A DNA stretch of 42,582 bases, taken from positions 1 to 42,582 of the forward strand of contig JBQGDK010000174.1 of the NCBI GenBank assembly GCA_052039025.1, given 5' to 3'. The notes beneath the pieces are model-generated. The model did no database searches, was not told where the DNA came from, and saw nothing but the letters and a program-made list of their open reading frames with translations. How positions within the stretch are numbered: position 1 is the stretch's first letter; every line of letters begins with the position of its first letter. The DNA comes from Actinomycetota bacterium (lineage in GTDB: Bacteria; Actinomycetota; UBA4738; CALAEC01). Shown here one piece after another: positions 4,906 to 9,554 of this stretch. The position numbers and the translations under genes are program-made.

Positions 4906-5825
4906 CCGACCTCTCCGATCAGACGCACCTCGGGCTCCAGCTCGACGCCGAACCGCTCGTGCACCCGTTCCCGGAGCCGGCGCATGAGCCGGTGGACGTC
5001 ACGCGCCGTGGAGCCGGGGCCGGCCACGATGAAGTTCGCGTGCTTCTCGGAGACCCGAGCCCCACCCACCGCCATGCGCTTGCCGCCCACCGCCTCGATC
5101 AACCGGGCGGCGTGGTCGCCCGGAGGGTTCGTGAACACGCTCCCGCAGTTCGGCTCGGCCAGGGGCTGGGTGGCCCGCCGCCACTCCCGGGCCTCGTCCA
5201 TGAGACGCCGGATCCCCTGCGGATCGCCCGGCCGCAGCCGGACCGTGGCCCCGATCACCACGCCGCGGTCCGGCAGGTCCGAGCCCCGGTACCGGAACCC
5301 GGCGTCCGCCGCGGGGACGTCGCGGGTCCGTTCCTGGTCGAGCTCGAACAGCTCGATCCGCTCGACGACCTCGTCGAGCGACCGGCCGTGCGCACCGGCG
5401 TTCATCCGCACGGACCCCCCGAGCGACGCCGGGATCGCCACACCGAACTCGAGCCCGGCGAGCGAATGGGAGAGGGCCACGCCGGCCAAGGCCGGCAGGG
5501 GCATCGAGCCGCCGGCGGAGAGCCGCCGGCCATCGCGAGCGGCCCACCGAAACGCCCGGCCCAGCCGAAGGACCACGCCGGGGAACCCTCGGTCGGAGAC
5601 GAGCACGTTCGAGCCCTTCCCGATCACCGCGAACGGCACACCGGTGGCCCGCACGGCTCGCGCCACGGCGACGAGATCGTCGGGCGACTCGGCCTCGACG
5701 AACAGCGCCGCGGGGCCGCCGAGACGGAACGATGTCAACGGCGCCAGCGGGAACCCGACGCTCAGCCGCGGCCCCACGGCGGACCGGAGGATCTCCTCCG
5801 CCTCCCGGAGCGGATCACTCGCCAC
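4902..5825 (-). CDS. murB: UDP-N-acetylenolpyruvoylglucosamine reductase MurB
   Basis: Contains LAPLTSFRLGGPAALFVEA, AVIGKGSNVLVSD, GSVRMNAGAHG and NCGSVFTNP. The track ORF (to 5996) runs back into murC, so I trimmed it to GTG 5825, which overlaps the murC stop by 11 nt. The start is uncertain. Confidence 0.85.
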   Translation of the reverse strand: MASDPLREAEEILRSAVGPRLSVGFPLAPLTSFRLGGPAALFVEAESPDDLVAVARAVRATGVPFAVIGKGSNVLVSDRGFPGVVLRLGRAFRWAARDGRRLSAGGSMPLPALAGVALSHSLAGLEFGVAIPASLGGSVRMNAGAHGRSLDEVVERIELFELDQERTRDVPAADAGFRYRGSDLPDRGVVIGATVRLRPGDPQGIRRLMDEAREWRRATQPLAEPNCGSVFTNPPGDHAARLIEAVGGKRMAVGGARVSEKHANFIVAGPGSTARDVHRLMRRLRERVHERFGVELEPEVRLIGEVG

Positions 5826-7257
5826 GGCGGGAACCCAGGAGCGCGAGCGTCTCGGATCCGACCATGGTGATGTCCCCCGCCCCGAGCGTGAGCACGAGGT
5901 CGCCGGGGCGCACCTCCCGGGCCAGGAACGGTGCGACCTCCGATCGCCGCGGGAGGTAGACCGCCCGCTTGCCCGGAGCGGCCTCGACCAGGCCATCGAT
6001 CACCAGCTTGCCCGTCACGCCGGGGACGGGCTGCTCTCCCGCGCCGTACACGTCGGTGACCACGACCAGGTCCGCGTCGCTCAGGCTCTCTCCCAGCCCT
6101 CGCCACAGCCGCGACGTGCGGGAGAAGCGATGGGGCTGGAACACCGCGACGATCCGGTCGGCCCCGTTGGCGCGAGCCGCCCGGAGGGTGGCGGCGATCT
6201 CCGTGGGATGGTGGGCGTAATCGTCGACGAACTCCACGCCGTCGGCATCGCCGCGACGCTCCCACCGGCGGCGGACGCCCCCGTACGAGGCGAGCGCCTC
6301 GACGGCGACCTCCGCGGGGACGCCGACCCGGGTGGCCACGGCCACCGCGGCGGCGGCGTTCCACAGATGCTGCCGCCCCGGGACCGGCAGTTCGAGGCGG
6401 CCGACCCACGCCGCCACACCGGGCGCCGCCGAGACTCGGATCCGGCACCTGCCGCCGGCCCGCCCGCCCTCGACCTCTTCGACCCGGACGTCGGCGTCCG
6501 CGGACCCCCCGTACCAGACGGCGCCGGCGCCGGCGGCCTCGACGACGCGCACGGCGCCGGGCTCGTCCGCGCACGCCACCACCGTGCCCGCCCGTCGGCA
6601 GAACCGGACGAAGGCCGCCTCGATGTCGGGGAGATCCCGGTAGAAGTCGAGGTGGTCCTCCTCCACGTTCGTGACCACGGCCAGCTCCGGCTCGAGCAGG
6701 AGGAACGTGCCGTCGGATTCGTCGGCCTCGGCGAGGAAGAGCTCGCCGGCGCCCGACCGGGCGTTGCTCCCGCTCTCGTTGAGGTCCCCCCCGACCACGT
6801 ACGTCGGGTCGAGGCCGGCCCGCTCCAGGACCACCGCGAGCATCGAGGTCGTGCTGGTCTTCCCGTGCGTCCCGGCCACGGCGATCCCCCGCCGCTCCCC
6901 CATCATCGCTGCCAGCACCTGGGCCCGGGCCAGGACCGGGATCCCCCGAGCCCGCGCATCCGCCACCTCCGGGTTCCCCGGTCCGATGGCGGTCGACACG
7001 ACCACGGCGTCGGCCTCTCCCACGTTGCCGGCGTCGTGCCCCACCGCGACGTCGGCACCGAGGGCTCGGAGCTCCTCGATGGCCGTCGACTCCTTCAGGT
7101 CCGAGCCGGACACGGCCACCCCGCGGGCCAGGAACAGGCGCGCCAGCCCGCTCATCCCGGCGCCGCCGATCCCGACCAGGTGCACCCGGGCGAGCCCGGA
7201 CAGGTCGGGCACCTCGAGCGTGGGGATGCTCCCGTGGGGCGGCACGTACTCGTTCAC
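5815..7257 (-). CDS. murC: UDP-N-acetylmuramate--L-alanine ligase MurC
   Basis: Contains VHLVGIGGAGMSGLARLFLARG, AVAGTHGKTSTTSML and DDYAHHPTEI. Start GTG 7257 forms a GTGA overlap with the murG stop. The 1013-aa track ORF is an artefactual extension. Confidence 0.92.
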   Translation of the reverse strand: MNEYVPPHGSIPTLEVPDLSGLARVHLVGIGGAGMSGLARLFLARGVAVSGSDLKESTAIEELRALGADVAVGHDAGNVGEADAVVVSTAIGPGNPEVADARARGIPVLARAQVLAAMMGERRGIAVAGTHGKTSTTSMLAVVLERAGLDPTYVVGGDLNESGSNARSGAGELFLAEADESDGTFLLLEPELAVVTNVEEDHLDFYRDLPDIEAAFVRFCRRAGTVVACADEPGAVRVVEAAGAGAVWYGGSADADVRVEEVEGGRAGGRCRIRVSAAPGVAAWVGRLELPVPGRQHLWNAAAAVAVATRVGVPAEVAVEALASYGGVRRRWERRGDADGVEFVDDYAHHPTEIAATLRAARANGADRIVAVFQPHRFSRTSRLWRGLGESLSDADLVVVTDVYGAGEQPVPGVTGKLVIDGLVEAAPGKRAVYLPRRSEVAPFLAREVRPGDLVLTLGAGDITMVGSETLALLGSRRGE

Positions 7258-8360
7258 GACCGCCTCCGCGCTTCCGCCACGGCGAGATCGGCGAGCGCGT
7301 CGGCCGCGTCCGGACGGCCGAACCGGAGGCTCGCCCTGGCCATCGACTCCAGCAGGGCACGGTCCTCCAGGAGCGGCGCGATCCGCTCGGCCACCCCGGC
7401 TCCCGACGCGGCATCGTCGAGGAGCACGGCCGCGCCCCCGGCCCGCTCCACCGCCCGGGCGTTCGCCTCCTGGTGCCGGCCGGTGGCGTAGGGGTACGGC
7501 ACGAGGACCGCCGGCACGCCGGCCACCGTGAGCTCGGCGATCGTCCCCGCGCCGGCCCGAGCCAGGGCCAGGTCGGCCGCCGCATAGACCAGCTCGACCC
7601 GTTCGACGAACGGGGCCGTGCGCACGAGCAGGCCCCGGGTGGCGGGCAGGTGCTGTCGGACGACGTCGAGATGTCGGGGCCCGGTGATCACCAGCACCTG
7701 CAGGTCCGAGCGGCCCGACAGGATCCGGCACAGCTCCACCGCGGCATGATCGAGGCGCAGCGCGCCCTGGCTTCCCCCCAGGACCACGAGCGTCCGGCGA
7801 CCGCTCTCCAGCCCCAGCGCCCCCCGGGCCTCCTCGGCCAGGGCCGCGCGGTCCTCCCGGACGCGGCGGACGGCCTCTCGCACCGGGTTGCCGGTGAGCG
7901 CCGTCCGGGCCCGGCGGGGCAGCCGCCGCCCGGCCTCGAGGAACGACAGCGCCACGATCCGGGCCCACCGCGCCGCGAGCCGATTCGCCAGGCCCGGCAC
8001 CGCGTTCTGTTCGTGGAGCACCAGCGGGACCCGTTCGCGCCGGGCCGCCAGCGCGACAGGGACGCTCACGTAGCCCCCCATCCCGAGGATCACGTCGGCG
8101 TCCCGCACCAGCGGTCGACACTCGGCGGCGGCCCGCAGCGCGGCCACGGGGGCGCGCAGCGTCGCCGTCGAGAAGGTCCGACGGAACGGCAGCGCTGCCA
8201 CCGTCCGCAGCGGGAAGCCCGCGGCCGGGACGAGCTCGGCCTCCTGGCCCTCGGCCCGGCCCAGGAACACGACGTCGGCGCCGAGCCGGCCCCTGAGCCG
8301 AGCCGCCGTGGCCACGGCCGGGAAGACGTGCCCGGCGGTCCCGCCGGTGCCGATCCCCAC
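7254..8360 (-). other. murG: MurG (lipid II synthase) portion; could also be made separately from in-frame GTG 8360
   Basis: The G-loop GTGGTAGHVFP starts 5 codons after GTG 8360-8358, which has a GGGGGAGG SD-like run 8 nt upstream. 368 codons to the stop at 7254. Confidence 0.8.
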
Positions 8361-9554
8361 CCGCCCGGCCTCCCCCCGCCGGGCCCGGCGGGCGCCGCGC
8401 GCGACCGAGACGAGGATGCCGACGGCCGCCATCGAGACGACCAACGAGGAGCCGCCGAACGAGACGAACGGGAGCGGCACCCCGGTGATCGGCAGCAATC
8501 CGGTGACCGCGCCCAGGTTCACCAGAGCCTGGACCCCGAACCAGCCGGTGATGCCCACCGCCAGGAACCGCCCGAACGCGTCGGGGGCGCGAAGGGCGAT
8601 CCGGATCCCCGCGAACAGCAGCGCGGCGAACAAGGCCAGCACGGCGAGGCTCCCCACGAGGCCGAGCTCCTCGCCGATGATCGAGAAGATGAAGTCGGTG
8701 TGGGCGTTCGGCACGTAGGACCACTTCTGTCGGCTGGCCCCGAGGCCGACGCCGAGCGGGCCCCCCGAGGCCAGCGCGATCATCGACTGGATCGACTGGT
8801 ATCCGCTCCCCTGCGGGTCGCTCCACGGGTTGACGAACGACACGACCCGGGCCCACCGGTAGCCCTCCACGTACATGAGCCCCAGGCCGAGGGTCGCCAG
8901 CCCGGCCCCGCCCACCAGGAGGTGCTTGGCCCGAGCGCCGGCCGAGAACAGCAGGATGAACACCGTGGCCGCCACGATCACCGCGGTGCCCATGTCGGGC
9001 TGGAGCAGGATCAGCCCGACGATGGTCCCCACGACGGGCACGAGCGGGACCACCAGCTCACGGAGATCGCCGATCCGACGCCACCGGGCGGCCAGGAGCG
9101 CGGCGGCGAACGCGATCACAGCGATCTTGGCCGGCTCCGACGGCTGGATCGTCATCGGCCCGAGCTGGATCCACCGCGCCGAGCCGCCGGCGACCGTGCC
9201 GACCCCCGGGATCAGCACGAGGATCAGGAGCGTCGCGCTGATGAGGAGCAGCGGACCGCAGAGCCGCCGCCACGCCGTGTACCGCATCCTCGCCGTGAGG
9301 AGGAACGCCGCGGTCCCCACCGCCGCGTAGGCGAGCTGGCGCCCGAAGAACAGGAAGCTCGAGCCGTAGTCCTCGTACGCCCGGACGGACGACGCCGACA
9401 GGACCATGACGAGGCCCAGGACGATCAGCGACAGGGTGGCCAGCAGGAGCGTCGCCACCGTGCGGTCGGTCCGAGCCACCCTCCCGGACGTCGGGACGAG
9501 CCGCAGGTGGGAGGGCCGGTGGCCGGCGGGCCGGGCGCGGGTCGCGCTAGGCAC
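7254..9554 (-). CDS. Single 766-codon ORF: SEDS-family FtsW fused in frame to MurG
   Basis: Residues 1 to about 398 are FtsW-like polytopic membrane sequence (PSEPAKIAVI, LLQPDMGTA, HTDFIFSIIGEELG, LPITGVPLPFVSFGGSS). From residue 399, VGIGTGGTAGHVFPAVA...LHEQNAVPGLANR...ATGRHQEANA is MurG. No stop codon lies between them. Confidence 0.8.
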   Translation of the reverse strand: MPSATRARPAGHRPSHLRLVPTSGRVARTDRTVATLLLATLSLIVLGLVMVLSASSVRAYEDYGSSFLFFGRQLAYAAVGTAAFLLTARMRYTAWRRLCGPLLLISATLLILVLIPGVGTVAGGSARWIQLGPMTIQPSEPAKIAVIAFAAALLAARWRRIGDLRELVVPLVPVVGTIVGLILLQPDMGTAVIVAATVFILLFSAGARAKHLLVGGAGLATLGLGLMYVEGYRWARVVSFVNPWSDPQGSGYQSIQSMIALASGGPLGVGLGASRQKWSYVPNAHTDFIFSIIGEELGLVGSLAVLALFAALLFAGIRIALRAPDAFGRFLAVGITGWFGVQALVNLGAVTGLLPITGVPLPFVSFGGSSLVVSMAAVGILVSVARGARRARRGEAGRVGIGTGGTAGHVFPAVATAARLRGRLGADVVFLGRAEGQEAELVPAAGFPLRTVAALPFRRTFSTATLRAPVAALRAAAECRPLVRDADVILGMGGYVSVPVALAARRERVPLVLHEQNAVPGLANRLAARWARIVALSFLEAGRRLPRRARTALTGNPVREAVRRVREDRAALAEEARGALGLESGRRTLVVLGGSQGALRLDHAAVELCRILSGRSDLQVLVITGPRHLDVVRQHLPATRGLLVRTAPFVERVELVYAAADLALARAGAGTIAELTVAGVPAVLVPYPYATGRHQEANARAVERAGGAAVLLDDAASGAGVAERIAPLLEDRALLESMARASLRFGRPDAADALADLAVAEARRRS
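8361..9554 (-). other. ftsW: FtsW (SEDS peptidoglycan glycosyltransferase) portion of the fused ORF
   Basis: About 398 codons with roughly ten hydrophobic segments and SEDS motifs. It ends in a basic linker, ARGARRARRGEAGR. Confidence 0.8.

Follow-up and report, generated by a model that had tools for sequence, protein, structure and literature searches.

An uninterrupted ftsW-murG reading frame in one Actinomycetota assembly lies a single base from an ordinary gene pair

The stretch of DNA analysed here, called the window below, comprises 42,582 nucleotides (positions 1 to 42,582 of contig JBQGDK010000174.1, C174 in our numbering, GenBank assembly GCA_052039025.1) from an Actinomycetota bacterium, and carries a dcw gene cluster in which ftsW and murG form one reading frame. 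The window has 73% G+C, and its genome (G000) is a metagenome-assembled genome (MAG) of 386 contigs that is 89% complete. The FtsW family comprises glycosyltransferases of the shape, elongation, division and sporulation (SEDS) type (TIGR02614, PF01098), and MurG is the lipid II synthase of glycosyltransferase family 28 (GT28; TIGR01133, PF03033 and PF04101). According to the listing of open reading frames (ORFs), positions 7254-9554 hold a single open frame of 766 codons with a GTG start. An earlier note on this DNA had reported such an uninterrupted frame at these coordinates, and both the frame and the coordinates stand, while the strand needed correcting to minus. Three features describe the frame as a whole.

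7254..9554, minus strand: single ftsW-murG frame, 766 codons, stop TGA at 7256-7254 (ORF list, domain matches)
8373..9554, minus strand: FtsW part, residues 1-394, ending in ...ARGARRARRG like the stand-alone FtsW of the genus (NCBIfam, junction sequences, invariant columns, seven cluster members)
7257..8360, minus strand: MurG part, residues 399-766, sole murG of the genome (NCBIfam, invariant columns, one TIGR01133 match)

Both halves are complete. In the 766-residue protein, Pfam places FTSW_RODA_SPOVE at residues 35-387 (E = 6e-111), Glyco_transf_28 at 402-534 and Glyco_tran_28_C at 588-752. The NCBIfam model for ftsW scores 397.5 bits against a curated cut-off of 337.5, and that for murG scores 278 bits against 250.25, with profile positions 8-352 of 353 aligned to residues 399-757. 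The FtsW half retains every one of the 42 columns that are invariant in an alignment of 30 FtsW sequences, among them W128, E140, K143 and D287, the last of which we take to be the catalytic Asp of FtsW. Likewise, the 47 columns that do not vary among 29 aligned MurG sequences are all kept in the MurG half, which has the GGTxGH pattern of the G-loop. There is no second murG in the genome, where a single TIGR01133 match was found. Two more SEDS genes of the FtsW/RodA type occur in the same genome (C386:5344-6477 and C84:300-1211), and they are 39-40% identical to the FtsW of the dcw cluster. By gene order, the fused FtsW occupies the dcw position between murD and murG, unlike the RodA paralogues.

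At the junction, the FtsW frame passes through ...VSVARGARRARRGEAGRVGIGTGGTAGHVFP... without any stop, and the stretch that spans the end of FtsW and the start of MurG includes ...ARRGEAGRVGIGTGG... in the fused frame. In protein, the junction reads ...VSVARGARRARRG-EAGR-VGIGTGGTAGHVFP, again free of stops. The features that matter here are the following, where P0278 is a closely related MurG protein and G023 and G016 are genomes of the same family, all taken up below.

8361..8402, minus strand: linker as the earlier note drew it, ARGARRARRGEAGR, residues 385-398 (sequence, AlphaFold model)
8370..8372, minus strand: codon 395, GAG (Glu); stop TAG at the same codon in the same-frame relatives G023 and G016
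8369..8373, minus strand: GGAGG Shine-Dalgarno motif, 8 nt 5' of the GTG at 8360; base 8372 is common to codon 395 and GGAGG
8364..8366, minus strand: codon 397, GGG; a murG start codon (GTG, ATG or TTG) in 13 of 13 aligned relatives
8358..8360, minus strand: in-frame GTG (V399), candidate start of a free MurG and equivalent to the called start (MVIGTGG...) of P0278
8355..8357, minus strand: codon 400, GGG (Gly), in strand beta-1; Val in 12 and Leu in 2 of 14 relatives, Val in P0278
8289..8291, minus strand: codon 422, GGC (Gly); Asp in 14 of 14 closer relatives and in P0278

What sets the frame apart from an ordinary gene pair is a coding-strand G at 8372, where the stop codon would have T. 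Among the 14 codons around the linker, the GAG of codon 395 alone becomes a stop by one substitution, and TAG at this codon would restore the FtsW end ...RRG that every relative of the genus has. In the DNA alignment, G023 and G016 have TAG at this position, six codons before the ATC of IGTGG, and the ordinary pair of G023 reads ...GGG AGG TAG CCG GTG CGC GTG GTG ATC. At two more T positions, in codons 397 and 400, the window departs from each of the 13 aligned relatives. The normally hydrophobic strand beta-1, ahead of the G-loop, reads VGIGT in the window against VVIGT or VLIGT in 14 of 14 relatives; AlphaFold still draws a strand at 399-403. The column of codon 422 is variable in a broader set of 11 relatives.

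The fusion is private to this assembly. A search with the whole protein covered 40 relatives, and a second search, with a 141-residue query spanning the junction, covered the whole family, 26 relatives including two new ones, 42 in total; the junction was recovered in 38, and only SEDS paralogues matched in the other four (G006, G021, G035 and G042). A stop-free match across both halves was found in the genome itself and in none of the 42 relatives, and no second contig with this junction occurs in the genome. A pattern scan of metagenome contigs gave three loci from other species of the genus (81-82% nucleotide identity to the window), none of them fused and all with the genus-type stop. The junctions of 11 relatives were read by eye. 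Four genomes of the same genus read ...RRG TGA CC GTG CGG GTG GTG ATC, so that murG lies in another frame and the spacer is one base shorter; G001 and G004 are unpublished, and this layout is supported equally by G002, G003 and the metagenome loci. In 8 of the 26 other family genomes, ftsW and murG share one frame and are separated by one stop, 2-7 codons before the murG start (TAG in G023, G016 and G020; TAA in G010; TGA in G013, G007, G024 and G041). G016 and G020 are also unpublished, as are G012, G014, G018 and G030, which were used in the tallies only. These eight genomes thus lie one point mutation away from the same fusion.

The protein clusters give the same picture. The 90%-identity cluster of the window protein has nine members, seven of which are complete or fragmentary FtsW proteins, each with ...ARRG as its end, and no FtsW member of this cluster is without the stop. 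Close FtsW relatives come from MAGs with the source name 'Actinomycetota bacterium'. The closest relative of the MurG half is P0278 (368 aa, on a 1551-nt contig from another sample), which is 97% identical to it (355 of 366 residues), has no frameshift against the window and was predicted as a separate protein whose start is the GTG equivalent to 8360. In MurG proteins of the genus taken from these sources, the start lies two codons further upstream, with MRVVIGT; the strain of P0278 probably shares the window's loss of this earlier start codon. A stop probably stands upstream of murG in that strain, because its ORF would otherwise have run on beyond the called start. The comparison with orthologous loci that the earlier note had proposed leaves all relatives separate and this assembly alone fused.

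The reading we favour, which in our estimate comes near an even chance of being right, is a private and evolutionarily very young loss of a stop codon that would be real in the strain. The ancestral layout would have had ftsW and murG in the same frame with a single stop right after ...RRG, and the TAG still found in G023 and G016 would have become GAG. Ribosomes translating ftsW would then run on through an 11-residue linker into MurG and yield an FtsW-MurG protein of about 80 kDa, with MurG hanging from the cytoplasmic end of transmembrane helix 10. The same base change would complete the GGAGG 8 nt before GTG 8360, so that free MurG (MGIGTGG...) could be initiated internally. Both GGAGG (8373-8369) and GTG (8360-8358) are in place as the earlier note had read them, and GGAGG-type sites also precede murF, mraY, murC and ftsQ; since the arrangement resembles these coupling signals, free MurG is probably still made from the internal start. 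If the G is present in the cells, both products may be made, and the fusion would be tolerated rather than selected.

The topology suits such a protein. SEDS proteins have both termini in the cytoplasm, as established from structures of RodA and FtsW, and the window protein aligns to 8bh1 over residues 36-390 and to 6bar over residues 78-386. The basic FtsW tail (ARGARRARRG) at the head of the basic and Gly-rich linker is thus the cytoplasmic end of a SEDS protein, where the earlier note had placed it. AlphaFold extends the last transmembrane helix to residue 392, gives residues 394-396 a predicted local distance difference test (pLDDT) score below 50 and begins strand beta-1 at 399, leaving about six linker residues unstructured (mean pLDDT 63 for residues 391-400 and 75 for 401-410). 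This model was built on only seven fused sequences (mean pLDDT 72.8, predicted template modelling score 0.54), and nothing is drawn from it on domain packing; a complex prediction of the FtsW part against the MurG part returned a score of 0.00, which is no verdict and counts neither way.

The surroundings of the junction are consistent with a real change. Only 13 private changes occur on 1183 invariant columns of the eight other dcw genes, and none of them is to Gly. Among 1418 genus-conserved nucleotide sites of the ORF, 51 are private, and the 90 nt of the junction hold two of them against a mean of 2.0. By these two counts, a general signature of G miscalls was not found in the assembly. 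Moreover, FtsW-MurG fusions are viable in other bacteria. On the other hand, several points weigh against a real stop-codon loss. The frame is known from one fragmented and incomplete MAG, and its closest relative was called as a separate MurG, suggesting an in-frame stop upstream. The Gly of codon 400 sits in the core of beta-1 where the relatives have Val or Leu, and the Gly of codon 422 replaces an Asp that is constant among the closer ones. Three private T-to-G changes fall in a 2.3-kb ORF, two of them 9 nt apart at the junction, and the context (GGC motifs, a hairpin of -21 kcal/mol and the high G+C content) is of the kind reported for Illumina miscalls in the available part of PMC3141275. 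The 11-residue linker is also far shorter than the 25-38 residues of natural fusions, and apparent fusions of this gene pair in assemblies of high-GC Actinomycetota are frequently artefactual.

The explanation that survives best beside a real change is an error of base calling or consensus, to which we give a substantial probability, somewhat short of an even chance. The true sequence would then be ...RRG-TAG followed by a separate murG at GTG 8360 (MVIGTGG..., as in P0278), with T miscalled as G at 8372 and 8356, and perhaps A as G at 8290, through systematic errors in a GC-rich, hairpin-forming stretch of low coverage. The ORF is unique to this assembly of 386 contigs, and correcting 8372 and 8356 alone gives the exact FtsW end of the genus and the exact N-terminus of P0278. 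Conserved residues have given way to private Gly at 400 and 422, and each changed base follows a G; Illumina sequence-specific errors, as far as the accessible text of PMC3141275 goes, in most cases copy the base before them, gather behind GGC motifs and inverted repeats and are commoner at high GC. A preceding G is, however, expected anyway at second positions of GNN codons, and the consensus would need to have accepted several identical errors over 82 nt. About three nucleotide differences are expected in these 82 nt between the strains of the window and P0278 in any case (3% protein difference), and the rest of the cluster lacks the signature, with no excess of private sites at the junction. 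The loss of the ancestral murG start, GGG at codon 397, seems common to P0278, which suggests that some of the T-to-G changes are natural. The folding energy of the junction is -21 kcal/mol, compared with -15 and -10 for two relatives, but the fold is no stabler than shuffles of the same composition (z = 0.05), and the hairpin was rejected as a special feature.

Far less probable, in fact very unlikely, is the reading of the earlier note, an evolved and selected FtsW-MurG tether, an adaptation by which lipid II synthesis would be channelled to the septal polymerase. In its favour are a coherent topology, two intact halves and, in another phylum, conserved fusions that join the same pair of proteins; moreover, MurG is recruited by the divisome in Escherichia coli, according to the available part of PMC2170320. 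Nevertheless, there is no conservation among the 42 relatives and three metagenome loci, and the 97% identical relative was called separately. The linker consists of the ordinary FtsW tail plus four codons of the former spacer, and the internal Shine-Dalgarno motif and start are retained, so the claim of a tether finds no support. The last explanation, a frameshift or misassembly in which a length error in the homopolymer GGGGGG hides a stop, we consider hardly credible and reject: a run of six G does lie at the junction (8377-8372), the same-genus relatives do have murG in another frame with a spacer one base shorter, and 33 of 120 listed ORFs for this pair carry both Pfam families, with all seven examined running into out-of-frame text, but a frame shift of one or two bases would add 96 or 854 codons to FtsW with no stop near ...RRG in any frame, and the spacing is that of the same-frame relatives G023 and G016. 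The hidden indel suspected in the earlier note is thus not the likely cause, and a substitution, real or miscalled, is the issue.

Elsewhere in the cluster the genes end as expected. All eight other gene ends inspected have a stop, five of them in 4-nt GTGA/ATGA overlaps (murE-murF, murF-mraY, mraY-murD, murG-murC and murB-ftsQ), in agreement with the earlier statement that every other junction has a stop, usually in such an overlap. The two ends that border the fused frame are these.

9547..9554, minus strand: stop TAG of murD overlapping the GTG start of ftsW (GTGccTAG, 8 nt)
7254..7257, minus strand: GTGA overlap of the murG stop with the murC start

At 5815-5830 of the window, also on the minus strand, the apparent start of murB is a GTG that shares 11 nt with the end of murC (GTG GCG AGT GA), in place of the 4-nt GTGA overlap found at most of the cluster's other junctions. 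Scans for tRNA genes and Rfam families over the 42.6-kb window (1-42582) found no tRNA gene and no Rfam family above the gathering score.

Fusions of the same two proteins occur in other bacteria. The full-length fusions P0014 (764 aa) and P0018 (768 aa) were among the best 150 matches of 1.84 billion representatives, and 7 of 120 proteins listed for the junction region of P0018 carry both families, including six fused relatives beyond the pair formed by P0018 and a Limisphaerales ORF. This ORF (L034:3001-5313, plus strand, on the Limisphaerales MAG chromosome OZ244865.1) is an uninterrupted FtsW-MurG of 770 aa with a 38-residue linker and is 65% identical to P0018; an apparent MurC-MurB fusion follows it downstream to about 7649. 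Several partial relatives share the fusion of L034 and P0018, which is sporadic in the order (1 of 61 sampled Limisphaerales genomes), and no description of it was found in the papers searched. A cluster in the ESM Atlas with 63 members (representative 746 aa, commonest in Pseudomonadota) also has FtsW with both GT28 domains, and a second Atlas match, a Bacillota cluster of 79 members, joins Wzy_C (O-antigen ligase-like) to the C-terminal domain of MurG. The literature search on FtsW-MurG fusions and dcw gene fusions found no description in the parts of the papers available, and a survey of Mur chimeras (PMC10214165) names, in its accessible text, MurE-MurF, MurC-Ddl, MurC-MurB, MurG-MurC, MurD-FtsW and MraY-MurG, with FtsW-MurG not among them. 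The earlier remark that no characterised FtsW-MurG fusion is known thus holds for these papers, whereas the architecture itself has precedent in sequence data.

Fused-looking ftsW-murG calls are also, judging from their sequences, a common artefact at high GC. The 33 listed ORFs mentioned above (within P0399-P0514) are short proteins that carry PF01098 and PF03033 and lie mostly on long contigs (many above 50 kb, up to 1.47 Mb). The seven examined begin or end in out-of-frame text rich in Arg, Pro and Gly, typical of indel-rich assemblies. In P0170 (1246 aa, Actinomycetota, on a 480-kb contig), FtsW, MurG and MurC lie in one chain, and the last 50 or so MurG residues look out of frame; a frameshift artefact superimposed on a MurG-MurC fusion may explain the chain.

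By sequence comparison, then, the ORF is real in the assembly and one base from an ordinary pair, and it is not an evolved fusion. As a one-base event in one assembly that bears no sign of selection, it should not be annotated or cited as such. It is quite conceivable, though rather less probable than its contrary, that in a living actinobacterial strain the sole MurG is attached covalently to the cytoplasmic end of FtsW through a linker no longer than 11 residues, and that this strain grows well enough to dominate an assembly. If this is true, then together with the independently conserved fusions of Limisphaerales and the Atlas cluster it would argue that lipid II synthesis can operate close beside the SEDS polymerase and may normally be located there, and the strain would offer a natural construct for the coupling of MurG to the divisome. 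In E. coli, the mid-cell localisation of MurG depends on a mature divisome, including in FtsW(Ts), there given as data not shown (PMC2170320, available part). If the G at 8372 is real, the strain would be a natural experiment in which an essential peripheral MurG tolerates a very short tether to FtsW, and it would bear on the association of MurG with the divisome, long discussed and structurally undocumented as far as the accessible part of that paper goes. The sturdier lead is the conserved FtsW-MurG fusions of Limisphaerales and other lineages, which are absent from the available text of the Mur chimera survey and of the papers searched.

Among known systems, the window is closest to the ordinary gene pair of its own family, with which it shares the order murD-ftsW-murG-murC, the frame and spacing of G023 and a Shine-Dalgarno motif embedded in the end of ftsW, at 64-72% identity to the window protein over both halves. 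It differs at three codons, with GAG in place of the stop, GGG where murG usually starts and GGG at the Val codon that follows. The artefactual fusions of high-GC Actinomycetota (P0158, P0170, P0415 and others) likewise run from the C-terminus of FtsW into the N-terminus of MurG without a stop, but they hold out-of-frame stretches inside or at their ends, whereas the ORF of the window is in frame and homologous throughout. Like the chimeras of the Mur survey, the window joins neighbouring dcw genes in one predicted polypeptide, here as one ORF without a stop in this assembly, and the MurD-FtsW and MraY-MurG chimeras show that both partners tolerate fusion; as far as the survey's available text goes, those chimeras are conserved across species, unlike the fusion of the window (PMC10214165). 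Finally, the fusions in other phyla (L034, P0018, P0014 and the Atlas cluster) likewise place FtsW ahead of MurG and carry all three Pfam domains in a single chain, at 31-39% identity to the window protein and with linkers of 25-38 aa against its 11. At least the Limisphaerales type is kept between sequences that are 65% identical, and it shares no common descent with the window, given 37-39% identity, a linker of 36-38 aa without similarity and the unfused state of the window's own family; by these sequence criteria, the fusion of the window and those of other phyla are of independent origin.

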